NCBI GenBank assembly: GCA_905182865.1
Contig: CAJJCY010000003.1
Span: 586,054 to 650,053, forward strand
DNA length: 64,000 nucleotides
Source of the DNA: an uncultured SAR324 cluster bacterium
GTDB lineage: Bacteria; SAR324; NAC60-12
Direction: 5' to 3'
Shown here: positions 1-14,895 of the stretch, one piece after another
How the letters are laid out: every line of letters begins with the position of its first letter
Position numbering within the stretch: the stretch's first letter is position 1
The notes under the pieces: generated by a model
What the model saw: only the letters and a program-made list of their open reading frames with translations
Told to the model about the DNA's origin: nothing
Databases searched by the model: none
Translations under genes and position numbers: made by a program

Positions 1-665
1 GCATGCGAAACTCCGTATCCAGCCTGCGCGATCAGACTTGATACTTCCTGTATGCCGGTGCCGGACGCACCTATGATTCCAATGGCTCCTTGTGGGATCT
101 GGTTGGCAAAGGCAAGAGGTACACCACCGATGATGGCGGTCCCACAGTCTGGTCCCATGACCAACAACCCAGCCGCAACAGCTTCACGCTTGAGCGAGAC
201 CTCTTCGGAGAGCGAAACGTTATCACTGAACAGCATTACGTTCAGTCCAGCACGAAGGGCCTTGCGCGCCTCGGCTGCAGCAAAGTCCCCCGGAACTGAA
301 ATCAGGGCAAGGTTTGCAGCGGGCAGAATGTCTTGTGCCGAGCGCAATGTTCTGGGACGCAAAGTGGTAGTCCCCGTATGGCCAACCGTAGGCCGTTCCA
401 GCAGGATCTCGGCCTTGGCCAGAGCACTTGCCGCAGCGGTTTCATCCCGTGCCCTGACAGCGAGTATAAGATCTCCCCCAGTGGCTTTGCGGCTAGCTCT
501 TGCCAGAAGTTTGGCGTTATCGAGAAGGTCGAGGTTGGAAGGGGTTCCAATCATGAGGGCGGCATCCTCAACCCCGTCAAGACGAGTGATGGAGCGGGAA
601 ATCTGCATTAGTATCACCGAGTCAAGAAACAGTCCAGCACAGACGCGGTTCACAATTTTACTCAT
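1..665 (-). CDS. fdrA: FdrA/AllF-family protein (succinyl-CoA-ligase-like fold; oxamate carbamoyltransferase subunit family). N-terminal 221 codons only; the 3' end runs off the window.
   Basis: Not in the ORF track because it is truncated by the window edge. My translation of the minus strand from ATG 665-663 gives MSKIVNRVCAGLFLDSVILMQISRSITRLDGVEDAALMIGTPSN...ANLALISVPGDFAAAEARKALRAGLNVMLFSDNVSLSEE...LLVMGPDCGTAIIGGVPLAFAN...GIIGASGTGIQE, open to position 1. These blocks match E. coli FdrA as I remember it (DSVSLM, ANLALISVAGEY, LLVMGPDCGT, GASGTGIQE). ATGA start/stop overlap with the upstream gene. Confidence 0.8.
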   Translation of the reverse strand, partial: MSKIVNRVCAGLFLDSVILMQISRSITRLDGVEDAALMIGTPSNLDLLDNAKLLARASRKATGGDLILAVRARDETAAASALAKAEILLERPTVGHTGTTTLRPRTLRSAQDILPAANLALISVPGDFAAAEARKALRAGLNVMLFSDNVSLSEEVSLKREAVAAGLLVMGPDCGTAIIGGVPLAFANQIPQGAIGIIGASGTGIQEVSSLIAQAGYGVSH

Positions 666-1936
666 CTTACCCCCAGTCGAGTCGCCAGTGCTTTCAGAGC
701 CAGTTCAAAACAAGCCAGAGGTGCTTTTACGACACCTGCTCCGACCTGACCGATTCCCGGTTTGCGGTGAGCAATGCCAGTGTTAATTGTTGGAGTAATA
801 CCCGTTTCCACCACCAGACGTATGTCGATTCCGGTCGGCACCCCCTGATAATCAAGAGCTGGAATTGTCCATTCGGGGTTTTGTGTGAGCGTAATCTCAC
901 CCATGGTGCGGGTAAAATCGGCTGCAATGGACGGTGTTCCCGCACCGACGAAACCAGCAACGGCTGGAGCCGCTGCCATGGCAAACCCTCCAAGCCCGAT
1001 TGTCTCGACAATGGTGGAGTCCCCCATGTCAGGATTGGCATCGTCGGCACTAAATCCAGGAAAATAAAGACCCTCTGGCATTTCCACTGGAGCGGTGAAC
1101 CATTCATCGCCAAGACCACTTACGCGAATACCGAAGTCGGTACCATTACGGGTCATCGCGGTGACAACGCTGGAGCAGTCGATGTCACACACTGGATCCA
1201 TGATCGCCTTACCCAAGGCCATGGCCAAGTTGAGAAAGAACTGGTCATTTGAACCGATGAAGGATAGCATTTCGGCCAATGCGGTGCGATCATCCACGGT
1301 TCGTGCAAGGTCCGGGGCTAACGTCCGTAACAGCAGGCTTGAACAACCAAGGTTACGCTGGTGCATCTCATCACCCATGGTGAGCCCACGGGCGACCAGT
1401 GGTTTGAGCTCGATCCCCTTACCAGCACGAAGGGCGACACCGAGTGCCGGACCCAGTGTATCCCGTAGCCAGCCCAAACGCTTTAGCACAGATGCATCGT
1501 TTCCACCGAAACGCATCACCTTTCCAAGTCCCTCGTTGATGGTGCAGAAAGCATGGTTTCCGCTAGCTCGGTTCTCCACCACCAGCACCGGCTGGCTGAG
1601 TGTGGTCATACCTGTCATAGGGCCAACCGCACCAAAATCATGGTTTGGATTAAGACTAAATGCCCCAGACTCAGCCAATTGTTCTGCCTCGGCAAGGTCT
1701 GTGGCCCAACCCTCAAAGACTGCAATGCCAGTGACAGCTCCACGCATTGGCCCGCACATGTTTCCCCAGTCGATAGGAGGACCGGCATGAAGAATCATGC
1801 CCTCCTGAAGTGCTGGGATCGCCTCGCTTGCCGGGACCACGTCAATCAGTACCGGTTTGGCTTCGAGTATCCGACGGATGGCCTCCGCATTGGCCTTACG
1901 TATGTTCGAACCCACTTTCTCCGATGTAGTCATCAT
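662..1936 (-). CDS. ylbE: DUF1116 (YlbE/AllG-family) protein
   Basis: 424-aa ORF with ILHAGPPIDWGNMCGPMRGAVTGIAVFEGWA and SLNPNHDFGAVGPMTG blocks typical of DUF1116 as I recall the family. It sits directly upstream of fdrA-like with 4-nt ATGA overlaps at both ends, and is linked to carbamate kinase as in E. coli fdrA-ylbE-ylbF-ybcF. Confidence 0.8.
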   Translation of the reverse strand: MMTTSEKVGSNIRKANAEAIRRILEAKPVLIDVVPASEAIPALQEGMILHAGPPIDWGNMCGPMRGAVTGIAVFEGWATDLAEAEQLAESGAFSLNPNHDFGAVGPMTGMTTLSQPVLVVENRASGNHAFCTINEGLGKVMRFGGNDASVLKRLGWLRDTLGPALGVALRAGKGIELKPLVARGLTMGDEMHQRNLGCSSLLLRTLAPDLARTVDDRTALAEMLSFIGSNDQFFLNLAMALGKAIMDPVCDIDCSSVVTAMTRNGTDFGIRVSGLGDEWFTAPVEMPEGLYFPGFSADDANPDMGDSTIVETIGLGGFAMAAAPAVAGFVGAGTPSIAADFTRTMGEITLTQNPEWTIPALDYQGVPTGIDIRLVVETGITPTINTGIAHRKPGIGQVGAGVVKAPLACFELALKALATRLGVR

Positions 1937-2154
1937 TCATTCAGCTTAGAAAGGAGGTTCGCCAGTTCTACATCTCCACGTGCAGGAGGTGACCAGTCCA
2001 CATGCACCACTACTGTTCCCTGTTTCGTAAGTTCATCAGCAAAGGATGCGAGTCCAAGATTTATAACTTGAGGGGGACCATTCAGGAGAGACTGCTGTAC
2101 CGTCTTTTCCTTAATCTGGGCACCACTCTTCTGTTGGTCGGATGCTTTGTTCAT
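1933..2154 (-). CDS. Small protein resembling the C-terminal tail of FdrA-family proteins
   Basis: 73-aa ORF. Both ends overlap neighbouring genes by 4 nt, indicating translational coupling. PQVINLGLASFADELTKQGTVVVHVDWSPPARGDVELANLLSKL resembles the E. coli FdrA C-terminus as I remember it (VAVINIGLRSFALELQSASKPVVHYQWSPVAGGNKKLARLLERL). Confidence 0.5.
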   Translation of the reverse strand: MNKASDQQKSGAQIKEKTVQQSLLNGPPQVINLGLASFADELTKQGTVVVHVDWSPPARGDVELANLLSKLNE

Positions 2155-3386
2155 TGATTGTAGACCTTGTAGGCAGCATCCACCCCGGCACCTGGAGGTG
2201 CGGCGAAACCGTTACGCCGCATCACAATCTCAAGCGCACTGAGACAACGCAGGATGTTGGCCTTGTGACACACATAGCCCATCGTGCCAATTCGCCAGAT
2301 TTTTCCGCGTAAAGGACCGAAAGAAGTCCCGATTTCGAGGCCAAAGTCATCCAGTAACTGTTTCCGTACTTGCTCTCCGTCTCCAAGCGCATTTGGGATA
2401 AAGACTCCAGTCACGTTGTCCATCCGGTAACGTTCGTTTCCAAAGAGTTTTAGATTCATGGCTGTGAGACCTGCGCGAAGGGCTTGACTGGTGATGCGAT
2501 GACGGGCAAAACCCGCTTCTAATCCTTCGCGGAGAACTTCCTGAGCGCATGTATGGGCAGCGTAGAGCATAGAAGTAGCCTCGGTGTGATGATTGAGACG
2601 CTTAGAACTCCAGTAATCCATCAGCATTGCAAGGTCAAAGTAATTCGACTGCACGATCACTCCATCAGCATCGGAGGAATCCTCGGATCGGATACCAGCC
2701 TCGACATGCTTGCGTGCGTTCACGATTTCAGCAACGCGGTCGTTGATCGTGAGTGGTGAGGATCCTGGCGGACCTGAGAGGCATTTCTGTAACCCTGCTG
2801 TGACTGCATCAAGACACCACTTGTCAACCTCGATCGGCATACCTCCTAATGTTGCAGTTGCGTCCACGTAAACGACTGTGCCAGCCTCGCGGCATAAAGG
2901 GCCAATCTCATCTAGCGGCTGTGCCATAGTTGTTGACGTGTCCCCATGGACCAAAGCTACAAAACGCGGCTGGTGTGTGCGGATTGCATCGGCGATCTGC
3001 TCAGGTTCAAACACCGTTCCCCATTCAGTTTCAATGTTGATCACTTCCGCTTGGCAGCGTCTCGCAATTTCTGTCAGGAGGTGGCCAAAACGACCGAAAA
3101 TCGGGACCAACACCCGGTCGCCGGGTGATATCATTGAACTTAGACATGCCTCAATTCCCGCACGGGCTGTGCCATTGACCAGGAATGTCCATTGGTTGCG
3201 AGTTCGGTATACCTGCCGATAGAGCGCCATGACTTCGTCCATATAACCGGTGAACTGGGGGTCGAACTGACCTAGCATCGGCAATGACATGGCTCTCAAT
3301 ACTGCTGGGTATACATTAACCGGTCCAGGGCCCATCAAGAGGCGTTGTTCTGGTTCCAGCGTTTTGAGTTCTAAATGGTTCATCAA
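2151..3386 (-). CDS. Class V aminotransferase (serine/alanine-glyoxylate type). Candidate ureidoglycine-glyoxylate aminotransferase (PucG-like).
   Basis: 411-aa ORF with an AGXT/SPT-like sequence (LLMGPGPVNV..., GDRVLVPIFGRFG, HGDTSTT, VDATATLGG). The operon context is ureide catabolism. Confidence 0.75.
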   Translation of the reverse strand: MMNHLELKTLEPEQRLLMGPGPVNVYPAVLRAMSLPMLGQFDPQFTGYMDEVMALYRQVYRTRNQWTFLVNGTARAGIEACLSSMISPGDRVLVPIFGRFGHLLTEIARRCQAEVINIETEWGTVFEPEQIADAIRTHQPRFVALVHGDTSTTMAQPLDEIGPLCREAGTVVYVDATATLGGMPIEVDKWCLDAVTAGLQKCLSGPPGSSPLTINDRVAEIVNARKHVEAGIRSEDSSDADGVIVQSNYFDLAMLMDYWSSKRLNHHTEATSMLYAAHTCAQEVLREGLEAGFARHRITSQALRAGLTAMNLKLFGNERYRMDNVTGVFIPNALGDGEQVRKQLLDDFGLEIGTSFGPLRGKIWRIGTMGYVCHKANILRCLSALEIVMRRNGFAAPPGAGVDAAYKVYNQ

Positions 3387-3436
3387 CTTGTTCTAATACT
3401 AAGAGATTGGAAATTCAATGTGGCTGTTTTTAGCTT

Positions 3437-4402
3437 CTACTGATCTGGAAAGATATGGGTGCCTGCTTTGCCAAGTAGTGCAGGCATTGCTTCATCAAGA
3501 TGCGCTATGGTCGCACGTTTTCCTCCACCTTCGATAAAACGAATTGCCGCTTCAATTTTAGGTCCCATACTACCCGCAGGGAACTGTCCTTCTTCAAAAT
3601 ATTTTTTTGCTTCTGAAACGGTGATTTGACCCAGTTCCTGTTGTTCCGGTTTTCCGAAGTTTATCGCAACTTGAGAAACAGCTGTCAGGATCATGATATC
3701 CTTGAATCCAAGCACATTTGCCATGTGGGCTGTAGTCAGGTCTTTGTCGATAACTGCTTCAACTCCACTTCGCAAGCCTTGACTGTTGCGGACAACCGGA
3801 ACACCGCCACCTCCGCCTGCAATAACTATAGTACCATTACTTGATAAGGATTCAACAAGAGAAATATCACAAATATGTTTGGGTTTTGGAGAGGCAACTA
3901 CCATGCGCCAACCACGTCCTGAATCTTCTTTCATCGTCCATCCCATTTTTTCTGAAAGATCTTTGGCTTCTTTCTCGTTGTAAAAATAACCCACGGGCTT
4001 GGTTGGATTCTTAAATCCAGGATCATTTGCGTCAACTTCAACCTGTGTCACCAGACCAACGACATGACGCTGGTTTCCGACTTTCCTCAAGGCATTTTCG
4101 AAAGCCTGCACCAGAAGATAAGCCGTCACACCCTGCGTGTTGGCTACGCAAATATCCAAAGACATTGGTGCAACCTGTTTATGGGCTAGGGCTTGACGCA
4201 TCAGGACCTTGCCAACCCCGGGGCCATTACCATGGGTAATTATCAACTCGTTTTCAAGTTCTAACAGCGGTAACAAAACATCTGCCGTTTCTTCAGCAAT
4301 GGCAACCTGTTCTTCAGATGTACCTTTTATTCCGGCCGGGTGAATCGCATTGCCGCCAAGAGCAACAATAATTCGTTTGGGAAATTCTTTGTTTGAATTC
4401 AT
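3437..4402 (-). CDS. arcC: Carbamate kinase
   Basis: 321-aa ORF with IIVALGGNAI, ITHGNGPGVG, IAGGGGGVPV and AVIDKDL, which are canonical carbamate kinase motifs. Confidence 0.9.
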   Translation of the reverse strand: MNSNKEFPKRIIVALGGNAIHPAGIKGTSEEQVAIAEETADVLLPLLELENELIITHGNGPGVGKVLMRQALAHKQVAPMSLDICVANTQGVTAYLLVQAFENALRKVGNQRHVVGLVTQVEVDANDPGFKNPTKPVGYFYNEKEAKDLSEKMGWTMKEDSGRGWRMVVASPKPKHICDISLVESLSSNGTIVIAGGGGGVPVVRNSQGLRSGVEAVIDKDLTTAHMANVLGFKDIMILTAVSQVAINFGKPEQQELGQITVSEAKKYFEEGQFPAGSMGPKIEAAIRFIEGGGKRATIAHLDEAMPALLGKAGTHIFPDQ

Positions 4403-4428: not shown

Positions 4429-5430
4429 TTATTGAATAACAAAAACATTGAACAATTCGGATATTTCCAGTGCATCAAGGTTTGCATCCAGAGCCAAAGA
4501 CAAAAGCAATGCTGATTTTTGCGGATTAAGCAAACCTGACGGAAAAACTTTTTTACTTTTGACAGGAGTCATGGTTTCCGCTAGAACTGTAACCTTTGAC
4601 ACCCGAGAAGAAACGACGACAGTGCATCCAGAATTTGCCGTTTCAGCGACTATTCTATTCAGGTTGTCAGGCATTGTACCACCTCCAAATCCTGCCACCA
4701 CCAATCCTTTACAAGCATTTCCCTCAAAATCGGCAAGTGGCTGATCTCCGCAACCAGCACGAAGTAAAACAATATCTACAAACGGCAACTCGTCATCATT
4801 CCGCAAATGGTTGTGGAATCGTCCCACTAGCGGAGAAAGATTTGGTGATCCGAAAAGCAAAAGGCTTTCACCGACAATCTTTCCTATCGGCCCACCGGGA
4901 TAAGCATGAAAAGAATCTAGTGCCACAGAATCAGTTTTGATGATTTGCCATCCGGGAATCACCAAACCGTTCATTACTACAAGCAATCCATGACTTTGAA
5001 GTTGCGGAGAAGTGGCTGCAAGAACCGCTTGAAATATATTCGCAGGGCCGTCTGCACTAAGTGCGGTGCTGGGACGCATGGCTGCAGTTAAAACTACCGG
5101 TTTTTTTGGTTTGCACACCAAATCAAGAAAAAAAGCTGCTTCTTCAAGTGTGTCGGTTCCGTGGGTAACAACAACGCCGTCAACTTCTGAGTCTGCTGTT
5201 AACTCCTCAATTCTTCGGGCCAGTATTCGCCATTGGTACGGTCCAAGATTTTCAGAACCCGTGGCAAACATGGTTTCTGAATTAACATCAGCCAATCTTT
5301 CCAAACCATCAATTGCTCCGACAAGTTCGGAAGCATCTACGCGCCCGGACTCATAAGCCGCATCTGTTGCCGTAGAACCAGTTCCGGAAATCGTTCCACC
5401 GGTGCCTATAACATGAATTTTCGGTTTGAT
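4429..5430 (-). CDS. L-asparaginase-family amidohydrolase (type I-like), probably with a non-canonical ATC start
   Basis: The track ORF starts at TTG 5304 and contains HGTDTLEE. The same frame stays open upstream to TGA 5448-5446 and encodes (I)KPKIHVIGTGGTISGTGSTATDAAYESG, which carries the catalytic TGGTI motif. There is no ATG/GTG/TTG upstream of that motif. An AGAGG (complement of 5436-5440) lies 5 nt before ATC 5430-5428. Confidence 0.7.
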   Translation of the reverse strand: MKPKIHVIGTGGTISGTGSTATDAAYESGRVDASELVGAIDGLERLADVNSETMFATGSENLGPYQWRILARRIEELTADSEVDGVVVTHGTDTLEEAAFFLDLVCKPKKPVVLTAAMRPSTALSADGPANIFQAVLAATSPQLQSHGLLVVMNGLVIPGWQIIKTDSVALDSFHAYPGGPIGKIVGESLLLFGSPNLSPLVGRFHNHLRNDDELPFVDIVLLRAGCGDQPLADFEGNACKGLVVAGFGGGTMPDNLNRIVAETANSGCTVVVSSRVSKVTVLAETMTPVKSKKVFPSGLLNPQKSALLLSLALDANLDALEISELFNVFVIQ

Positions 5431-5463: not shown

Positions 5464-6483
5464 TCAAACACCGCAGATATTTGCCAATAAGGACATCCGG
5501 AGAGGCACAGAAAATCCTATCTGCTTGAAATAAAGTTCGTGTTCACTGGCATCAATCGCAAAATCAAACTCACCTTCGTTTCGAGGGAGGGAGTGCATCA
5601 GGCCAACAGTCTTGCCGCTTTTTTGTTTTATTTTCTGAAGTCCTTCAAGAGTGAAGTAGAATTCAGCCATTTTTTTCAAGAAATCATCTCGTCCGGGATC
5701 CCCCTTTTTCACAGAACAACCGGGAAGATACAGGAGATCAACTCCTTCATCGGCAAGCATTTCTTCGTGCTGCCCAATAGTCAAATCGTTAACTTCGGTG
5801 AAATTGGCGTTCATTGCTTTCAACTTTTCGCGGATGACTGTAGGTACTCCCAGACCTGTAGTCCCTGAATAAATAAGTTTGGCTCCCATACGTGCCAGTC
5901 CAAGCCCGAAAGACTGGCCGGATCGCGCTCTTGACAAATCAGGTGTAGCGATCATGACGGTCATTTCTTTGAAATCGCCTCCAAGGGCACGATATGCCGT
6001 GTACATGTCCAGTAGCCCCTGAGTCGGGTGGGTTACGTTACCGTAACCTCCACTGATGATTGGCGAAGCATCGCTTCCCAATTGCTCTATGGTGTCAATA
6101 ACGCCTTCATCAGGATGGCGCAAGACGATGACATCTGCGTACTGAGAGGTCACTCTAAGAGAATCATAAAGGGATTCCCCCTTTGCGGCAGCAGAACTGA
6201 CCAAAGGATTGGATTCTGTAATGACATTACCACCCAGCCGAAACATTGCCGTTTCGTGACTGAAACGTGTACGGGTACTTGGTTGAAAAAACTGTGTGCA
6301 GAGTATCTTCCCTTCAAGCAACGGGATACGGTTACGCCAAAATGGTTCAAGCATTTCTGCTGTCTTGAAGATGTTTTCGAGTTCTGTAGACGAATAATCG
6401 TCAATGAAAATTAAATGCTGCCCTTTGATACCGGTTTTCTCAATTTGCTTAAAAGTATCATCCTTAATAAATGTAAGTGTCAT
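5464..6483 (-). CDS. Aspartate/ornithine carbamoyltransferase-superfamily enzyme of unknown second-substrate specificity
   Basis: 339-aa ORF. It has the carbamoyl-phosphate motifs QPSTRTRFSHE and THPTQGLLD, and a C-terminal HSLPR (ATCase has HPLPR). The ATCase aspartate-binding block after D(I/V)LYMTRVQKER reads DLLYLPGCSVKKGD here. Confidence 0.8.
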   Translation of the reverse strand: MTLTFIKDDTFKQIEKTGIKGQHLIFIDDYSSTELENIFKTAEMLEPFWRNRIPLLEGKILCTQFFQPSTRTRFSHETAMFRLGGNVITESNPLVSSAAAKGESLYDSLRVTSQYADVIVLRHPDEGVIDTIEQLGSDASPIISGGYGNVTHPTQGLLDMYTAYRALGGDFKEMTVMIATPDLSRARSGQSFGLGLARMGAKLIYSGTTGLGVPTVIREKLKAMNANFTEVNDLTIGQHEEMLADEGVDLLYLPGCSVKKGDPGRDDFLKKMAEFYFTLEGLQKIKQKSGKTVGLMHSLPRNEGEFDFAIDASEHELYFKQIGFSVPLRMSLLANICGV

Positions 6484-6522: not shown

Positions 6523-7293
6523 TTAGATATCCGCATCACGGTTCATATCTTTGCTGTAGATGTACCATAGCGGTTCACGCCCGGTGGTATAGGCAGCTTG
6601 CTGGGTGAACGGTCCAAACCAGATAAAATCTTCCTTCTGCACCGACAACCATTCATCACCAAGCAAGTAAAGACCTTGTCCGCCAAGCAGATAGGCACCA
6701 TGTTCCTGAACATGAGTTTCCACGAAAGGATGACAGCCGTCAGGCATAAATTTGAGCGTATGCATATTCATGTCGAACTCCAGATCATTGGGCAATAAAT
6801 CACGCAGAAATACATTGTCCATTTCATCATAAATGTTCTCTTCAATCTTGTTGATGTCTCCAAAAACGATCCATGGTTTCAGGTCACCCAAAGGGACATA
6901 ACGTTGTTTGTACAGTAGAACACGAACTGACTCAGAAGACGAGTTTTCAAATTCAATGCCTGTATCCGGTGGTGCAAACGCATAACCTCCGGCCTTTAAT
7001 TTTTCGGTTATGTCTCCGACACGAACCTTAAGTTCACCGTCCCCATCCATTACAAACAGGAAGGTCTCAACTCCTGGAGCCTCAACGAATGGAACTAATG
7101 TTTTTCCTCCTGCTTCAACGCTTCCGACATACTGTACAAAGCTTGCGCCGTGTTTTGGTGAGGCGATAATCGTAAGTTTGCATCCCTCAAAACCGGGGAT
7201 GGAATTAATAACCCTCCCTTCTGGAGGAATGATAGTAAAGATTCCGGGTTTTATAACGGCTCGACTTTCAAGAAATCCTTTTGGGTACGGCAT
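6523..7293 (-). CDS. allE: (S)-ureidoglycine aminohydrolase (bicupin, YlbA/AllE family)
   Basis: The 256-aa ORF has the length and two-cupin layout of AllE/UGlyAH (…FVETHVQEHGAYLLGGQGLYLLGDEW…), in a ureide-operon context. Confidence 0.8.
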   Translation of the reverse strand: MPYPKGFLESRAVIKPGIFTIIPPEGRVINSIPGFEGCKLTIIASPKHGASFVQYVGSVEAGGKTLVPFVEAPGVETFLFVMDGDGELKVRVGDITEKLKAGGYAFAPPDTGIEFENSSSESVRVLLYKQRYVPLGDLKPWIVFGDINKIEENIYDEMDNVFLRDLLPNDLEFDMNMHTLKFMPDGCHPFVETHVQEHGAYLLGGQGLYLLGDEWLSVQKEDFIWFGPFTQQAAYTTGREPLWYIYSKDMNRDADI

Positions 7294-7471
7294 ATTATTT
7301 TATCCTTATATTTGGTTTATGTCCCTCAACAGAAAAAAATATTTAAAGGACTGTGGTTTACTTTATATTAATGATTTGCGCAATTATCATGGTCTAAAAA
7401 GGTAGACTTCACATTCCGAATAATAGGTTCTATTAGCGTGATAACTTGAAATTCAGGTATCAAAAAATCCA

Positions 7472-8110
7472 TTAATTTGGAATAGCATCAAGGAATTCCT
7501 GGTAGTAAGGTCGTCTAAATTCCTTGAGAAGGTGTTCAAGTTCAGAAAGCGGATCTTTGTTGTCATCCACTCTGAGATGGCAAAATGGAAAGGGTTGATT
7601 TTTAATCGTCAATAGTGCAGCCGATTGCCTGCCACGAACATCTCCTCCGACAGCTTCTCCTGCTTTAAGTGCTCGCAACAACCTCTCCTCAATTGGTTCG
7701 TCCTTCTTAGATTTTATTACTTCAAAGCATGCTTCTAGTACTTGTTCCCCCACGAGCATATTTCCCGCCAAGCTGAAATTTTTTCCACATTTATGTCCTG
7801 ACCATTCTACAGTATCTTTGCCTGTCCAGGCCCAAGCATTCCCTGACACGTCTACACCATGCAACTGTCTTGAATCTTTGGCGGGATCTTCTTTTAAAGC
7901 TGCCAAAAGCGAATCCTTCAGGGAATAACCGCTAGCCATTTTTTCCAATCCTTTTAACCCCAGATATGGATTGGTTGCCGCTTGCGTCGCTATTGCCCCT
8001 ATACCTGACTTTAAGTGTGGGACAAGTGCTCCTACAGCAAAATGACATGTAGCCACAGCAACTCCTAGTGTTTTCGACTTTGGATCACACATTACGATAG
8101 AGAAAGTCAT
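7472..8110 (-). CDS. DUF1028-family protein (Ntn-hydrolase-like fold)
   Basis: The 212-aa ORF begins MTFSIVMCDPKSKTLGVAVATCHFAVGALVPH..., the characteristic DUF1028 N-terminus (M-T-F-S-I) as I recall the family. It is the first gene of the minus-strand ureide operon. Confidence 0.7.
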   Translation of the reverse strand: MTFSIVMCDPKSKTLGVAVATCHFAVGALVPHLKSGIGAIATQAATNPYLGLKGLEKMASGYSLKDSLLAALKEDPAKDSRQLHGVDVSGNAWAWTGKDTVEWSGHKCGKNFSLAGNMLVGEQVLEACFEVIKSKKDEPIEERLLRALKAGEAVGGDVRGRQSAALLTIKNQPFPFCHLRVDDNKDPLSELEHLLKEFRRPYYQEFLDAIPN

Positions 8111-8605
8111 TTTTTTTCTAATTGGAATTTAGATATATTATTACCAGTGTCCCAAGGAAAAATTAATTATTCTCAGTAACTATTTGAAAACACAAATTTG
8201 TATGCAGTTTATGTTTAGTCCTTGAGGCTATAGTCAAAAAACGGCTAGAAATAGAGACTTCACCATACAATATTCTCAAGTTATTGAGTCTTCTCAGTAT
8301 TTGAAAAAACATTAATTCAGTTGCTTGATAAATAAATAATAACTTAAGGCAATAACTTAGGGACATTAGAGAGAATTTCAACTTTTTTAAGATGATTCTA
8401 AGCTTTTACAAAATTTTAAGAATCATCATATCATCTATTAATACAAAAATATTTTAAATTAAAAACTTGTAAGGCAATTTAATTTTTATGATAATATGCC
8501 TAAATTTTATTATAACCTTATTACTGGAGCTAAAAGGTAAAATTATATATATTTAATTCAAAATATAGGAATCTCTATTTTTTAACTTTTTTCAGGAGGA
8601 TTAAG

Positions 8606-10152
8606 ATGAAGATAATTAACTTTAAATCAACGCTTATCATGCTATATTATTTGCATGTTTTTGTCATCTTTTGCTCAAGCAAAAGATATTATTTGGGCTC
8701 GTTATGGTGATATTGATACACTTGACCCACATAGAGCCACGAGCACTTTGTCTTTACAGGTGTGGGGCCTTATTTATGATACCTTGCTGGCGACTGACAA
8801 GGATGGGAATGCCGTACCACACTTGGCTAAGTCTTGGGAAGTCTAATTCAGATGGGACTGAATATACTTTTGTCGCTGAATAAAGGGTCTAAGTGTCATG
8901 ACGGGACCGCAATGGATGCAAATGATGTTAAATATACTGTAGAAAAAGCTTTCAGTAAATCTAGTCCAAGTTTGACAAAAGGCAGTTGGGGGCCAATTAC
9001 TAAGGTTGAAGTTCTCAATCCACTAACTGTAAGCTTCCATCTTAAGACACCATTTGTTGCACTTATTTCATTTCTTGCTGACAGTTTTTCGTCAATTATT
9101 TGCGACTCTAATAAAGGTAAATCAGGTTTTGGTACAAGCGCAGCGATTGGATCTGGGCCATGGAAATTTGTCTCATGGACCAAAGGCGACAGGATAGTTT
9201 TAAAGAAAAATCCTAATTTTAAGAATTTTGGTAAATTGCCAAAAAATCCAGGGGCCCCTTATATGGATGGTCTTGTAATAGCGGTAGTTCCTGAACCACA
9301 AGCACGTCTGGCGGCACTCAAAACCGGTGAAGTACATATAGCTGAACCACCATTTGATGATGTCCAGGCCCTTAAGGATTCTGGAGCGCTTAAAATTATG
9401 GTTGCAGAAAATACTGGACAAAATGTTTTTTGGGAATTTGCTGCACACAGGCCACCTTTCAACGATAAACGTGCTCGATTAGCAGTAGGCCATGCCACAG
9501 ATCCAGAAACAGCTATTAATTTGATTTATGGTGATCTTTCTATGACGGAGGCGTGCCCAGTTTCTAGGGGCGTTTTTGGTAATGACCAAGAGTTTTGCTT
9601 AAAGTATAGGCCAAATTACAATCCTGAAAAAGCCAGGGCATTGCTAGCAGAAATTGGATATGGTCCAAGCAATCCACTTGAAACAACAATGATTGTATGG
9701 ACCGGTGGTAATCGCCCAAAACTTGCTGAAGTTTTTCAATCACAACTTGCTGAAGTGAATATAAAAGCAAATATTGAACCATTATTGGTTCTATAATGTA
9801 ATTTTGAAAAATGAAAATAAAACAAGTAAAAATGTTGAGCATGGATATGATGACATGGTCATGGTACGATCCTGATATCCTTTATGCTTTGTGGCATTCT
9901 CCGGGCGCTTATCGGGGATATACTACACCAGGACTTGATGCGATGTTAGAAAAAACTAGAGTCTTAAGCAATAAAGATGAACGAAAAGCGCTTGTTCAAG
10001 ATGTATTCAAGCATCTTCTCGAAAATGGTGTTCACATTCCTCTTTATACTCCTGGGTGGGAATGGGTTTTTGCAGTCCGACCGGAGGTAAAGGGATTCAT
10101 TGTTGCCCCTTTTGTCTATCCAACGTTCAATGATGTTAGGATAGAGAATTAG
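8606..10152 (+). pseudogene. Family-5 (Dpp/Opp/Nik-type) periplasmic substrate-binding protein, disrupted by at least 5 frame changes
   Basis: GGAGGA at 8595-8600 precedes ATG 8606 (MKIINFKSTLIMLYYL...). The coding signal then hops frames: near 8650 (…FLSSFAQAKDIIWARYGDIDTLDPH), near 8844 (…AKSWEV|NSDGTEYTFV), near 8872 (|LNKGSKCHDGT…), near 9785 (…NIKANIEP|…NVEHGYD) and near 9845 (|MDMMTWSWYDPD…). Each hop is +1. Confidence 0.75.
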
Positions 10153-10331: not shown

Positions 10332-11243
10332 ATGATTCGTTTCCTCTTAGGAAAAATTGTAATGGCTTTTCTCACTGTTTTCATTACAACCATGATTGAA
10401 ACTTCATATCATGGTAATCCAAACCTAAAACCAGTAGGATATCAACACGATTTTACTCCTGAACAAATTGAAGAGGTACGTCGTAATCTTGGACTCGATA
10501 AACCAATTTATGTTCAATATTTCATGTATATTGAAAAGCTATTTCAAGGAGATTTAGGTTATACCATTCGAGGTGGACAACCGGTTATTCAAGTCATTTT
10601 TCAAAGGTTACCAAACACAATTATGCTCGCATGTGCAGCAATGATTATTGCTATTGGTATTGGCTTACCGATTGGTTTTTTTGCCGCATACAAGAAAGGC
10701 ACAATTTGGGATACATTTGTAATGATTATTGCTATTGCAGGTATTTCCATGCCTCATTTCTGGTTAGGATTAATACTTCTTTTCTTCTTTGCAGTGGAGC
10801 TTGGGTGGCTTCCAGTAAGTGGTAGTGGATATATGAATCTTATCCTACCTGCCTTGACTTTGGGCCTATCAAATGCAGCTATTATTGCACGTTTAACTAG
10901 GTCATCCATGATTGATGTAATGCAGCAAGATTTTGTACAGACTGCTTTGGCTAAAGGACTTCCTAAAGGGCTTGTTTTAAGGCGTCATGTTTTAAGAGCT
11001 GGACTAGTACCACTAATCACAATGATGGGTTTGCAATTTGCCTTTATGATGGGAGGTGCAATAGTAGTTGAAAACATTTTTTCGTGGAATGGGGTTGGAA
11101 GAATGGCTGTAGAGGCAATTTTTCAAAGAGATTACCCAATCATACAAGGTTTTATCCTAACTTTCGCAGTGGTTGTAGTAATTGTATCAATATTTTTGGA
11201 TACTATTTATGCTTTTATTGATCCTCGAATTCGAAGGAGCTAA
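10332..11243 (+). CDS. ABC transporter permease (DppB/OppB-like)
   Basis: 303-aa ORF. It is polytopic, with a LGLDKPIYVQY block and the binding-protein-dependent permease layout. Confidence 0.85.
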   Translation: MIRFLLGKIVMAFLTVFITTMIETSYHGNPNLKPVGYQHDFTPEQIEEVRRNLGLDKPIYVQYFMYIEKLFQGDLGYTIRGGQPVIQVIFQRLPNTIMLACAAMIIAIGIGLPIGFFAAYKKGTIWDTFVMIIAIAGISMPHFWLGLILLFFFAVELGWLPVSGSGYMNLILPALTLGLSNAAIIARLTRSSMIDVMQQDFVQTALAKGLPKGLVLRRHVLRAGLVPLITMMGLQFAFMMGGAIVVENIFSWNGVGRMAVEAIFQRDYPIIQGFILTFAVVVVIVSIFLDTIYAFIDPRIRRS

Positions 11244-11257
11244 AGGGAATATCCAAT

Positions 11258-12130
11258 ATGTCTGAAAAATTGAAGAGCGAAGAGTTAAAGACTAAAAACC
11301 AATCATTTTTCATAAGGCTATTGTCTACACCTAATGGTTTCATAGGCTTAACGATTGTCATCATACTTATACTATCTGCAGGATTTGCCGATTTTTTGGC
11401 TCCTTTTTCTCCAACAAAAATGATGGTTGGGAACCGATTCCTTCCTCCGAATTTAGAATTTATTTTGGGTACAGATGAGTTTGGAAGGGATATGGTCTCT
11501 CGTATTTTATTTGGTAGTCGATTGACCTTGATGATTGGCGCCATAGCAGTTGGGATTTCTATGACAACCGGAATAATGATCGGCCTTTTTGCCGCTTATA
11601 AGGGTGGTTGGCTAGAAATTTTACTGATGCGAAGCACAGATATTCTTTTTTCGTTTACAGAAACGCTTATTGCTCTTTCTTGTGTTGCTGTTTTAGGGCC
11701 AAGTTTAACCAATGCTGTTATAGCCGTTGGTATTGCGGGGATCCCATTTTATGCTCGGACCTGCTATTCTGCTGCTTTAGTTGAGAAATCCAAACCTTAT
11801 TTTGAAGCAAGTATCGCATGCGGAGCAAGTCATTCTAGACTTGTTTTCATGCATCTGTTACCAAATGTTTTACCTACAATGATTGTTATTTCAACTTTAG
11901 GTGTATCTACTGCAATTTTGGCAGCAGCAGGCTTAAGTTTTCTTGGACTTGGCGCTCAACCTCCACTTCCTGAATGGGGGTATATGCTTGCAGGTTCAAG
12001 AGATTATATTAACCGTGCACCATGGTTAATGACTATACCAGGTGTTGCAATTGCCTTAACAGTTCTTGGTTTTAATCTTTTAGGTGACGGATTTAGAACA
12101 GTTCTCGACCCTGTAGAAAGGCAGAGATGA
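11258..12130 (+). CDS. ABC transporter permease (DppC/OppC-like)
   Basis: 290-aa ORF with ILGTDEFGRDMVSRILFGSR, typical of DppC/OppC. It overlaps the ATPase start by 4 nt. Confidence 0.85.
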   Translation: MSEKLKSEELKTKNQSFFIRLLSTPNGFIGLTIVIILILSAGFADFLAPFSPTKMMVGNRFLPPNLEFILGTDEFGRDMVSRILFGSRLTLMIGAIAVGISMTTGIMIGLFAAYKGGWLEILLMRSTDILFSFTETLIALSCVAVLGPSLTNAVIAVGIAGIPFYARTCYSAALVEKSKPYFEASIACGASHSRLVFMHLLPNVLPTMIVISTLGVSTAILAAAGLSFLGLGAQPPLPEWGYMLAGSRDYINRAPWLMTIPGVAIALTVLGFNLLGDGFRTVLDPVERQR

Positions 12131-13804
12131 ATGAGTCTATAATTCTTTCAGTTAATAACTTGAATGTTAGCATTAAATCTAAAGGAATCGTATCTCAAAT
12201 TGTACATGATTTGTCGTTTGATGTTAACAGAGGTGAAATTTTATCCATAGTTGGTGAATCTGGTTCAGGAAAAAGTATGACGGCTAAAGCTATTTTGGGA
12301 TTATTACCTGAAAATAGTTCTGTTAGTGGCAAAGTTATGTTTCAGGGTCGCAATCTACGCGACTTGAACGACGAACAAGATGCGCAAGATGTCCGGGGTG
12401 CAAAGATTGGTATGATTTTTCAAGAACCTATGACTTCTTTAAATCCAGTATTTACATGCGGAGATCAAGTAATGGAAGCAATTGTTCTTCATCAAAAATT
12501 AAATACTAAAGATGCTAAATTATGTTGGCATCCGTGAGCCTGAAACTCGGCTTGGGGCCTATCCGCATCAGCTTTCAGGTGGTCAGCGGCAACGCATTAT
12601 GATTGCCATGGCCCTTGCCAACCGCCCGGATGTCTTGATTGCCGATGAGCCGACAACGGCTCTGGATGTGACTATTCAGGCGCAGATTTTAGAATTATTG
12701 GCTGAGTTGAAAGTCTCAGAGGGGATGGGTCTTTTGTTCATCACCCATGATCTGGCGATTGTGCGCCGGATTGCCGATCGGGTCTGTGTGATGAAAGACG
12801 GTGAGATCGTCGAGACTGGCAGCACGGCAGCGATTTTTGCAAATCCGCAACCCTATACAAAATCTTTACTGGCAGCTGTACCGCGTTTAGATGTTAAAAC
12901 ATTTAAAAATGAATCTTTTACGAAAACTTCAACAATTCCATTAGTAACAATAAATCGTGTATCTAAAACGTTTACAAATAATAAATATTTATTCTTTGAT
13001 GGTTGGAAAACTAATGCTCTAAATGAAGTAAGTCTTGAAATTAATTATGGAGAAACAGTTGCTTTAGTTGGGGAAAGTGGCTCTGGGAAATCAACACTTG
13101 GGAGAGCAATAGTTAAACTAGTAAATATAGATTCTGGAAATATTGTAATTGATAGTTCAAATATTAATTCACCAAATTCTAATGATTTACGTAAGCTCCG
13201 ATCAAATGTTCAGATAATTTTTCAAGATCCCTATTCATCGCTTGATCCCAGATTTTCAGTCGGTAGAAGTATTGCAGAACCAATTCTAATTCAAAAAAAA
13301 TGTAGTCGATCAGAAGTAAAAGATAGGGTGTCAATTCTTTTAAAGAGTGTTGGTTTAAATAATGAAATGGCAAGCCGTTATCCACATGAATTTTCTGGAG
13401 GTCAACGTCAACGTGTAGCTATAGCAAGGGCTCTTGCATCTGAACCGAAATTTATCGTAGCTGATGAGCCGACATCGGCTCTAGATGTAACCATACAAGC
13501 ACAAATACTTGAACTATTGATTAACCTTAAAAAAGAGCTTCATAAGACAATTGTTTTTATTACTCATGACCTTGATGAGGCAATCCGGATCGGACACAGG
13601 ATAGCAATAATGAAAGACGGTATAATTGAACAACTAGATACTGTTTTAGGAAATCCTCATAACGCTTATACAAAATCTTTACTTGACGCGGCGCCTTATC
13701 CCGATCCGGAGAAAAGGAAAAAATTAAAAAGAAAAAGTGATTTAAAATCATTTAATACGGGGCCACTAATTGAAATATCACACAATCATTGGGCAGCATC
13801 ATAA
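12127..13804 (+). pseudogene. Fused double-ATPase (DppD+DppF-like) ABC component, split by a +1 frameshift near 12500-12515
   Basis: ORF 12127-12537 carries Walker A (GESGSGKS) and ends …HQKLNTKDAKLCWHP*. ORF 12512-13804 continues in the next frame with (I)LKMLNYVGIREPETRLGAYPHQLSGGQRQR…, then a second full ABC domain (GESGSGKST … FSGGQRQR … ADEPTSALD). Confidence 0.75.
12526..12888. other. GC-rich patch inside an AT-rich ATPase gene (compositionally foreign segment)
   Basis: Hand counts: 12601-12660 = 37/60 GC, against 23/60 at 12241-12300 and 14/60 at 12901-12960. The peptide ALDVTIQAQILELL is encoded twice in the gene with different codon usage: gatgtgactattcaggcgcagatt in the patch, and gatgtaaccatacaagcacaaata in domain 2. 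Confidence 0.7.
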
Positions 13805-13986: not shown

Positions 13987-14895
13987 TTAATTTGTTGAGT
14001 GGTGTTTGTGCCAGTGTCGGGCTATGTCGATGCGGCGGCACAGCCAGACATCAGCATGGCTGCTTACATAATCAATAAATTTTTCCAAAGAGGCGGTGCG
14101 TCCGGGCCGACCGGTCAGTCGGCAGTGCAATCCGATACTTAACATTTTTGGGGAGGCTTCACCCTCGGCATATAGCACATCAAACGCATCCCGAAGATAT
14201 GCAAAAAACTGCTCTCCTGAATTAAAACCCTGTGGGCTGGCAAAGCGCATATCGTTGGTGTCCAGAGTGTAGGGAACCACCAAATGAGGATCTCCTGCAG
14301 GGGTTTCTACCCAGTAAGGCAAATCGTCCGCATAAGAATCGGCATCGTATAAAAACCCTCCGACTTCCTGTACCAAACGCTGAGTGTTGGAACTAGTGCG
14401 CCCGGTGTACCAACCCAAAGGTCTGCTCCCCGTAACACGGGTATGGATATCAATGGCTTTTGCCATATGTTCACGCTCGATGTCTTCGGGTATATTTTTG
14501 TAATCAATCCAGCGATAGCCGTGAGACGCAATTTCCCAATCGGCTTGCAGCATGGCCTCAACAGCTGCCGGATTACGTTCCAGAGCCATAGCGACACCGA
14601 AAATTGTCACTGGAATATTCCGGCTTGTGAAAAGACGATGGAGTCGCCAAAATCCGGCCCTGCTTCCATATTCGTAGATTGATTCCATGCTCATGTGTCG
14701 TGCACCTGTGAAGGGTGGCGCGCCGATGATTTCGGAAAGGAATGTTTCGGATGCAGGGTCTCCGTGGAGGATACAGTTTTCTCCTCCTTCCTCATAATTG
14801 ATGACAAATTGGAGGGCAATCCTGGACTTCTCGGGCCACTCAGGATGTGGAGGTTTTTGGCCGTAGCCAAGCATGTTGCGGGGATAATGTTCCAT
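13987..14895 (-). CDS. puuE: Allantoinase, PuuE type (polysaccharide-deacetylase fold)
   Basis: 302-aa ORF with RNMLGYGQKPPHPEWP…IALQFVINYEEGGE…ASHGYRWIDY…LSIGLHCRLTGRPGR, matching PuuE as I recall it. Confidence 0.85.
   Translation of the reverse strand: MEHYPRNMLGYGQKPPHPEWPEKSRIALQFVINYEEGGENCILHGDPASETFLSEIIGAPPFTGARHMSMESIYEYGSRAGFWRLHRLFTSRNIPVTIFGVAMALERNPAAVEAMLQADWEIASHGYRWIDYKNIPEDIEREHMAKAIDIHTRVTGSRPLGWYTGRTSSNTQRLVQEVGGFLYDADSYADDLPYWVETPAGDPHLVVPYTLDTNDMRFASPQGFNSGEQFFAYLRDAFDVLYAEGEASPKMLSIGLHCRLTGRPGRTASLEKFIDYVSSHADVWLCRRIDIARHWHKHHSTN

Follow-up and report, generated by a model that had tools for sequence, protein, structure and literature searches.

The DUF1028 family (PF06267) is large, with more than 7,000 homologous clusters in one search and members in both bacteria and archaea; a structure has been solved and the reaction is not known. 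That structure (PDB 2IMH) is of SPO2555 from Ruegeria (Silicibacter) pomeroyi; it comes from structural genomics, carries no functional assignment and is described in no peer-reviewed paper (PMC9140057). Two other described systems bear on the gene considered here. The pseudo-aspartate carbamoyltransferase (pseudo-ATCase) Rxyl_2847 of Rubrobacter xylanophilus converts allantoate into ureidoglycine and carbamoyl phosphate by phosphorolysis; genes for carbamate kinase and an asparaginase-like protein come after it (Barba et al., PMC4016543). In operons of the MeAmi-type amidase, this cytoplasmic enzyme is genetically coupled to an SBP_bac_5 importer that bears a peptide-binding annotation, and the associated binding protein binds L-amino acid amides, not peptides (bioRxiv 10.1101/2024.02.22.581678). 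Our subject is the DUF1028 gene at positions 7472..8110 (minus strand) of a 64,000-nucleotide stretch, hereafter the window, from an uncultured SAR324 cluster bacterium (contig CAJJCY010000003.1, positions 586,054 to 650,053), where it lies in an island of ureide genes. An earlier note on this DNA had proposed that the gene heads the ureide operon and supplies a missing amidohydrolase step, possibly the hydrolysis of oxamate or of another ureide amide. HpxW, the oxamate amidohydrolase that served there as the term of comparison, is reportedly an N-terminal nucleophile (Ntn) type amidohydrolase of purine catabolism that uses a Thr nucleophile and is activated by autoproteolysis. We find that the DUF1028 protein is very probably an amidohydrolase of the Ntn superfamily as judged from its predicted structure, but that it is unlikely to be a missing step of purine breakdown, because its constant partner across genomes is a nearby Dpp/Gsi-type importer. 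Coordinates are window positions unless a locus is named.

Results

The gene is an intact, ATG-initiated open reading frame (ORF) that encodes 212 amino acids with the N-terminus MTFSIVMCDP, in agreement with the length and the MTFSIV start given in the earlier note. The product matches PF06267 over the full profile (residues 2-191 against profile positions 1-193 of 193; 226.1 bits for a cut-off of 26.2, E 4.3e-67). This is its sole Pfam match, and a scan of the protein against NCBIfam returned none, hence neither an NCBIfam name nor a score for TIGR03176 (AllC). Thr2 is invariant in an alignment of 15 DUF1028 sequences spanning 50-84% identity (15/15), as is the motif GGDxRGRQSAA, which is present in the window protein, and T-[FYW]-S directly follows the start codon in 71 of 80 diverse DUF1028 loci. 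The AlphaFold2 model (predicted local distance difference test score, pLDDT, 89.3) has a secondary-structure order that fits the four-layer alpha-beta-beta-alpha Ntn core, and Foldseek superposed it on PDB 2IMH with template-modelling (TM) scores of 0.90/0.88 and a root-mean-square deviation of 1.8 A over 212 columns. SPO2555 is the sole solved relative (E 1.6e-20 by sequence, 31% identity). The PDB matches at E<=1e-3 numbered 31, and those listed beyond 2IMH were proteasome alpha and beta subunits, HslV and Anbu, the proteasome/HslV-type folds scoring TM 0.4-0.5 with Foldseek E values from 5e-5 to 1e-3. Because the Met-Thr start is invariant, the modelled fold is of the 2IMH type (TM 0.9) and proteasome beta and HslV come next, we consider the protein very probably an N-terminal-Thr amidohydrolase. 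The earlier suggestion that Thr2 suits an N-terminal nucleophile was therefore sound, Thr2 being invariant and the predicted fold being Ntn. In the loci L075, L083 and L092 (two Pyrinomonadaceae) the DUF1028 frame opens with a hydrophobic stretch that resembles a signal peptide, and there is no Met-Thr start; these would thus be exported forms that need proteolytic exposure of the nucleophile.

The gene is single-copy in its own genome, and its protein falls in a SAR324/cyanobacterial subgroup with about 50% identity within the subgroup. Comparison with the orthologue of an 84%-identical relative (L002) gave a ratio of nonsynonymous to synonymous substitution rates (dN/dS) of 0.145, which indicates purifying selection. 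In the same comparison the constraint is tighter on AllE, the pseudo-ATCase and carbamate kinase (0.04-0.08), and the allantoinase PuuE equals DUF1028. A further DUF1028 paralogue, distant from the window protein (59-70 bits) and lacking in this genome, occurs at ten loci (L128-L137, in genomes G020-G022, G026, G028, G031, G032, G059, G062 and G063), with none of the query genes nearby.

The neighbourhoods of the 80 diverse loci, which come from species-representative genomes of cyanobacteria, Alpha- and Betaproteobacteria, Bacillota, Chloroflexota, Acidobacteriota and archaea, were surveyed within a radius of 5 kb. AllE, carbamate kinase, AllG, asparaginase and DUF6986 were found at none of them, a PuuE-like deacetylase at one, a gene like that for 2-oxo-4-hydroxy-4-carboxy-5-ureidoimidazoline (OHCU) decarboxylase at one, and a carbamoyltransferase at two. 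A PepT-type (Dpp/Gsi) ATP-binding cassette (ABC) importer was present at 36 of the 80, often in the same operon, as against 0 of 66 pyrB control loci, a rough control with another taxon mix and shorter flanks than the DUF1028 set. Next in frequency came a gamma-glutamyltranspeptidase (GGT)-like hydrolase (23/80), an M20 enzyme (8/80) and an AsnB-like amidotransferase (7/80). Among 72 immediately upstream neighbours, the Pfam tally is headed by G_glu_transpept (17/72), followed by ABC components and Asn_synthase; of the 55 families matched, the 25 most frequent include no ureide family. Many of the GGT-like genes stop 4 nt before DUF1028. In Alphaproteobacteria, where GGT-like protein, DUF1028 and Dpp-type importer form the commonest architecture, a cytoplasmic GGT-like protein of about 600 residues ends 4 nt before DUF1028 within a Dpp-type importer operon (L025, 8137-9945, and 16 other loci); this neighbour closely resembles PDB 6J3A/6J3I (E 1.8e-199). 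The co-occurrence with allE, puuE and carbamate kinase that the earlier note had suggested computing is thus not borne out (0/80 for allE and carbamate kinase, 1/80 for a PuuE-like gene): family-wide, and largely also overall, DUF1028 neighbourhoods are unrelated to purine catabolism.

The same was examined at closer range in the order to which the window belongs (64 species genomes). DUF1028 occurs in 21 of them, whereas AllE occurs in the window's own genome alone, so that 20 of the 21 lack allE. Eleven of the 21 carry close orthologues (260-300 bits to the window protein) and ten carry distant paralogues (59-70 bits). Nine of the ten other orthologue-bearing genomes, together with the metagenomic contexts that reach far enough upstream, have DUF1028 and the importer as a divergent pair, around which the remaining genes change. 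In a first arrangement (57-62% identity; two genera with nine genomes, plus metagenome contigs), the importer operon is followed by an M42 peptidase, an M20 enzyme and a GntR/FCD regulator. The M42 protein passes the equivalog TIGR03106 of the N-acetylglutaminylglutamine amide (NAGGN) system (468.7 for a cut-off of 397.75 bits), and the M20 protein belongs to the hydantoinase/carbamoylase-allantoate amidohydrolase family (NF006769, 469 for 452 bits; TIGR01879). The shared promoter here holds twin copies of AATTTATCATGATAAATT, an 18-bp palindrome that occurs twice, 13 nt apart, in the DUF1028/importer promoters of L008 (9926-9972) and L012 (9926-9974), loci of sister clades that also carry the GntR/FCD gene. 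In a second arrangement (71% identity, L151/L152), the genes for substrate-binding protein, two permeases, ATPase, AllE, pseudo-ATCase, asparaginase and DUF6986 are co-directional and DUF1028 is divergent from them; behind DUF1028 lie an unknown ORF, Maf and PBP2, the ureide genes being on the importer's side. Only in the third (80-98% identity; the window, L002-L007 and L153) do the ureide genes lie behind DUF1028. Since the divergent pair persists while the other genes change, we take the constant unit to be DUF1028 plus importer, not DUF1028 plus allE. PuuE scored above cut-off in 22 genomes of the order, namely in 10 of the 11 with a close orthologue and in 12 of the other 53; the association comes from three genera, and the window's own genome is the only one in which PuuE and DUF1028 share a contig.

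In the window, the pair is separated by an AT-rich divergent intergenic region of 496 nt (8111..8606) that has equal length in a 96%-identical relative (L153). The plus-strand operon begins with the gene of a Dpp/Gsi-type SBP_bac_5 substrate-binding protein (8607..10152), as identified by tblastn, Pfam and NCBIfam, which lies in at least three frames: with the intact 517-residue L002 protein as query, tblastn gave pieces at 8619-8840, 8839-8871, 8855-9778 and 9820-10149 in frames 3, 1, 2 and 1. The protein is likewise intact, with 517 amino acids, in L153, relative to which the window shows single-base insertions near 8647, 8836 and 8874, and its sequence is scrambled over 9780-9836. Two intact permease genes follow (10332..11243, full length, and 11258..12130; each 88% identical to its L002 counterpart, with dN/dS of 0.08 and 0.095), and then a fused double ABC ATPase (12127..13804) that is broken once near 12512, where tblastn passes from residues 1-129 in frame 1 to residues 136-569 in frame 2. 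No GntR gene was found in the window by tblastn, at the place between ATPase and PuuE where L002 has one or elsewhere, and AATTTATCATGATAAATT is absent from the window promoter even at 3 mismatches, so the putative shared regulation of the sister clades does not extend to this locus. The importer looks decayed in this genome, with DUF1028 intact. The binding-protein gene is split or mostly missing also in L152 (8667-9672) and L013/L014 (8548-9873), and intact in L153 and L002; this could be a recurrent decay of one gene or a recurrent assembly problem.

A residual link to ureido compounds was found within the subgroup. In those genomes of the first arrangement that were checked, no AllC-family gene scores above the family cut-off other than the M20 gene inside the DUF1028/importer module, one genome having a second, weaker AllC-family match; these genomes make allantoate, with PuuE, PuuD and DUF6986 elsewhere in the genome. 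A marine Synechococcus locus (L049, 3726-10675) has an operon of SSF Na+/solute symporter, pseudo-ATCase, AsnB-like protein, carbamoylase-type M20 and DUF1028, in which the M20 and DUF1028 genes overlap; a class I glutamine amidotransferase gene and the urease genes ureC and ureD adjoin it. This operon seems to match the context that PMC4016543 describes for "subgroup 3", although the neighbour in that paper is a putative asparaginase. Two Rhodospirillales-type loci also have a carbamoylase-type M20 beside DUF1028 and an importer. Because DUF1028 recurs next to carbamoyl-cleaving enzymes in SAR324-type bacteria and Synechococcus, a ureido cargo is suggested, and the module in this subgroup may handle a compound that has an amide or peptide bond as well as a ureido group.

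As to whether the island lacks a ureide amidohydrolase at all, no AllC was found above cut-off genome-wide: the best TIGR03176 score (249 for 597.75 bits) belongs to a gene in an amino-acid transporter cluster on another contig, and the second M20 of the genome (C1:186 kb) is in an amino-acid transporter/oxidase cluster with no link to the DUF1028 locus. For ureidoglycolate lyase (AllA) there is just a weak partial profile match in this genome. Allantoicase had no match in the genome, with a profile that also matched 0 of 14 control genomes, so that its absence is not established. The AllC step, however, has a candidate in the pseudo-ATCase (5464..6483, minus strand), which was recognized from its OTCace_N/OTCace domains, its motifs and its contexts elsewhere, and which stays under every cut-off for aspartate and ornithine carbamoyltransferases. 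Of its invariant motifs, STRT and HPTQ are those of transcarbamylases, and HSLP and L-P-G-C-S (G-C-S) take the place of the HP[LG]P and RxQ of ATCase, a pattern like that of subgroup 2, whereas the assayed subgroup 1 has HPLA and AIA/AIS/SIA (Table 1, PMC4016543). By family and context the protein is likely of the ureidoglycine carbamoyltransferase (UGTCase) type; we infer this substrate, and do not regard it as proven, because the pattern is that of subgroup 2 and not of the assayed one. When metagenomes were scanned with the pseudo-ATCase alignment, most of the matches were ordinary ATCases, and only about 14 loci had true family members. In all, relatives of the pseudo-ATCase were followed at 17 loci of other lineages (43-83% identity), which adjoin carbamate kinase, AllE, PuuE, the asparaginase-like gene or an AT5-AllG-AllF-AllH set, and DUF1028 was found in none of the 17. 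With the pseudo-ATCase and carbamate kinase likely filling the AllC step, the gap needs no new hydrolase. In the window the pseudo-ATCase coexists with AllFGH, a second system that forms carbamoyl phosphate.

Three specific roles for DUF1028 were rejected. A replacement of AllC does not fit, since a UGTCase-type enzyme is present and related clusters (L141, L142) lack both AllC and DUF1028. A specific oxamate amidase does not fit either, for the 84%-identical relative L002 keeps DUF1028 without the aminotransferase and the AllFGH genes that would form oxamate. Nor does DUF1028 fill one fixed gap, because a genus of the order (g10) has DUF1028 and a true AllA beside PuuE and no AllE, and the window has AllE without AllA. 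The steps left here for another enzyme are ureidoglycolate cleavage and possibly oxamate hydrolysis, for both of which DUF1028 is no better a candidate than the asparaginase-like gene; the latter is favoured for the residual amide hydrolysis because it travels with pseudo-ATCases across phyla. The proposal of a missing amidohydrolase step is thus weakly supported, the AllC gap being explained otherwise and no ureide step being consistently absent where DUF1028 is present. From the proposal that the protein may hydrolyse oxamate or another ureide amide, the predicted amidohydrolase class stands and the substrate is not supported (0/80 loci, allE in 1/64 genomes, L002).

The remaining genes of the island were annotated as follows. 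DUF1028 is the first gene of a co-directional minus-strand run, and to that extent it heads the operon as had been claimed; the claim is weakened by the 178-nt spacer that parts it from allE (7294..7471, by ORF coordinates; 393 nt in L002), compared with gaps of 26-50 nt elsewhere in the run, and by the 71% relative, in which allE is not downstream. A simple scan of the spacer showed no terminator-like site and a weak promoter-like site directly upstream of allE (7325-7297, minus strand), and an alignment of the spacer with three relatives showed nothing conserved beyond the ribosome-binding site. The run continues on the minus strand with the (S)-ureidoglycine aminohydrolase gene allE (6523..7293; TIGR03214, 325.8 bits for a cut-off of 200), the pseudo-ATCase, a type II asparaginase-like gene (4429..5430; Pfam and NCBIfam), carbamate kinase (3437..4402; NF009007, 336.8 bits for a cut-off of 266), a class V aminotransferase (2151..3386; PF00266) that may be a PucG-type ureidoglycine-glyoxylate aminotransferase, AllG (662-1936) and the N-terminal part of AllF/FdrA (3-665), the last two assigned jointly on PF06545 / NF004760. 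AllH (PF11392) and the malate-synthase-like DUF6986 lie just left of the window (C3:582.5-585.2 kb), as does a xanthine/uracil permease. On the far side of the importer, PuuE (13987..14895, minus strand; TIGR03212, 542.8 bits for a cut-off of 424.6) is followed, up to 17130, by PuuD, 5-hydroxyisourate (HIU) hydrolase and OHCU decarboxylase, as found with phmmer.

Several side observations concern these genes. The frame of the asparaginase-like gene is open for 42 codons upstream of the first ATG/GTG/TTG and aligns (tblastn, 5430-4441) to the whole L002 protein of 333 residues, for which the start as called is an Ile codon; translation of the gene probably begins at a non-canonical codon. Positions 1-3400 have a GC content of 52-56%, compared with about 40% elsewhere, and comprise the aminotransferase, a small ORF, AllG and AllF, with AllH just outside. 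The gene order of this GC-rich block recurs in unrelated marine contigs (L142, L155, L156, with the aminotransferase in the same position), and L002 lacks the block, which has the look of a mobile "oxalurate branch" cassette that entered between carbamate kinase and DUF6986. DUF6986 and the xanthine/uracil permease accompany PuuE-PuuD in several SAR324-type genomes, some without DUF1028 (L146 and L149 in G047 and G027; C3:582.5-584 kb in the window's genome), and DUF6986 is a candidate for a glyoxylate-consuming end of the pathway.

Discussion

We believe, with our confidence evenly divided, that DUF1028 is a cytoplasmic Thr-Ntn amidohydrolase coupled to the divergent Dpp/Gsi-type importer and acting on the cargo of that importer. 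Methionine aminopeptidase would bare Thr2, which would attack the amide or peptide carbonyl of a small, nitrogen-rich imported compound and release ammonia or an amine through an acyl-enzyme intermediate. The enzyme would thus stand upstream of, or beside, the route from allantoate to glyoxylate or oxamate and not be one of its canonical steps, the classical AllC step of the island being taken, as we propose, by the ATCase-like carbamoyltransferase with carbamate kinase. A weaker suggestion is that what the importer carries in SAR324-type bacteria is a ureido (N-carbamoyl) amide or peptide-like compound, the product of which might pass to the decarbamoylating enzyme of the importer operon: the AllC-family M20 in the sister genera, the pseudo-ATCase with carbamate kinase in the window.

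Several points weigh against this explanation. Gene neighbourhood is unable to name the substrate, and we found no functional study of the DUF1028 family or of SPO2555 in the literature, which agrees with the earlier note that the family has no assigned function. One orthologue of the order (in G030) stands after flgE with no importer nearby. The co-occurrence with PuuE in 10 of 11 genomes fits a direct role in ureide breakdown equally well. Above all, the window has a frame-broken binding-protein gene, one break in the ATPase and neither GntR gene nor operator, but an intact and constrained DUF1028. This suggests that the protein can function in the absence of the importer and has come to depend on the allE operon behind it; an intact DUF1028 beside a broken importer is the fact that our explanation accounts for least well. 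The frame breaks, for their part, might be assembly errors.

The first alternative, which we regard as doubtful, makes DUF1028 an amidohydrolase of the ureide pathway itself, with ureidoglycolate, oxamate (in the aminotransferase/AllFGH branch) or allantoate as the substrate. Its position directly upstream of allE on the same strand, its survival amid the decay of the importer and the PuuE association speak for it, and the genome has no true ureidoglycolate lyase, AllC or allantoicase that we could find (the allantoicase search not being conclusive of absence); the sister-clade modules, moreover, hold the only AllC-family enzyme of their genomes. On the other hand, the link with allE, carbamate kinase or allG is found in neither the family-wide loci nor the 17 pseudo-ATCase clusters, one of the 64 genomes in the order has allE as against 21 with DUF1028, L002 keeps the latter gene without the oxamate-forming branch, the true AllA beside PuuE in g10 means that no one step is consistently missing, and DUF1028 of L151 is not co-directional with the ureide genes. 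The UGTCase-type enzyme would also cover allantoate cleavage, and the asparaginase-like gene is the better candidate for the residual amide hydrolysis.

It is, in our opinion, equally doubtful that the module is a generic scavenger of peptides or gamma-glutamyl peptides with no tie to purines, in which DUF1028 cleaves, for instance, the dipeptide left by a GGT-like enzyme and the position in the island is a by-product of rearrangement. The commonest alphaproteobacterial architecture argues for it, as do the nearest structures outside the family, which are peptidases (proteasome beta and HslV), the decay of the module in this genome and the fact that both binding proteins match best, below cut-off, the glutathione-binding protein GsiB. 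Against it, a carbamoyl-cleaving neighbour appears in three SAR324-type arrangements and in the Synechococcus operon, for which chance is hard to invoke, and the 15-sequence alignment has no invariant Lys matching Lys33 of the proteasome.

A more specific role would be that of a new marine ureido-compound amidohydrolase: the importer would take up allantoate or a carbamoylated amino-acid amide, DUF1028 would strip the amide nitrogen from the import or from ureidoglycolate, and phosphorolysis of the ureido group left behind, by the pseudo-ATCase with carbamate kinase, would then yield ATP. We think this improbable as a whole; if true, it would give a first function to a family of thousands of members. 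Finally, that DUF1028 is a functionless remnant decaying with its importer, as the frame breaks, the lost regulator and a dN/dS above that of AllE, pseudo-ATCase and carbamate kinase might hint, is very hard to credit for an intact ORF with all family-invariant residues in place, including Thr2 and GGDxRGRQSA, and a dN/dS that indicates clear purifying selection, the same as for PuuE.

On the importer-coupled explanation that we prefer, the substrate of DUF1028 is most likely whatever Dpp/Gsi-type importers deliver and not a canonical intermediate of purine catabolism, which prevents an annotation as oxamate or ureide amidase from position alone. For the AllC step no new enzyme is required in the island, which would use the little-known UGTCase route. 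If the cargo is indeed a ureido amide, one family would link the use of marine dissolved organic nitrogen by SAR324-type bacteria and by picocyanobacteria. Tractable systems for a test are SPO2555 of R. pomeroyi and the alphaproteobacterial operons of GGT-like protein and DUF1028.

Comparison with described systems

Within its family, the window protein is best compared with SPO2555 (SCOPe d.153.1.7), with which it shares the TFSI N-terminus. Outside the family, the nearest fold is that of HslV and proteasome beta, Thr1 Ntn peptidases, and in HslV the Thr likewise comes directly after the initiator Met; with about 10-15% identity and no conserved Lys33-type residue, however, the window protein is not a member of that group, and it gives no sign of a ring assembly or an ATPase partner. 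HpxW of Klebsiella pneumoniae (PDB 5HFT) is a GGT-family protein (PF01019), and the window protein has no match to that family. The earlier note was right to place the two in different families, HpxW in PF01019 and the window protein in PF06267 alone, and their sizes differ as well (212 aa, as against about 520-600 aa for GGT-like proteins). The GGT-like neighbours of DUF1028 in other genomes are themselves far nearer to PDB 6J3A than to 5HFT.

Among operons, three comparisons can be made. The NAGGN "trio" of AsnO-type amidotransferase, Ngg and M42 (TIGR03104/03106) resembles the sister-clade modules in the M42 enzyme, which is above the TIGR03106 cut-off, and cyanobacterial DUF1028 genes pair with AsnB-type amidotransferases, although these AsnB-like neighbours score 316 bits for a TIGR03104 cut-off of 570 and the window itself has neither M42 nor AsnB. 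The island repeats the set of pseudo-ATCase, carbamate kinase and asparaginase-like gene known from Rxyl_2847-2849 of R. xylanophilus, near genes that form allantoin; the published table of that cluster names no DUF1028 and lists one gene as unknown (PMC4016543). The MeAmi operons differ in that their amidase is of the FmdA_AmdA family and under ANTAR regulation, in place of DUF1028 and, in the sister clades, a GntR/FCD regulator. They follow the same logic of uptake plus hydrolysis that we propose for DUF1028, and so provide a precedent for it.

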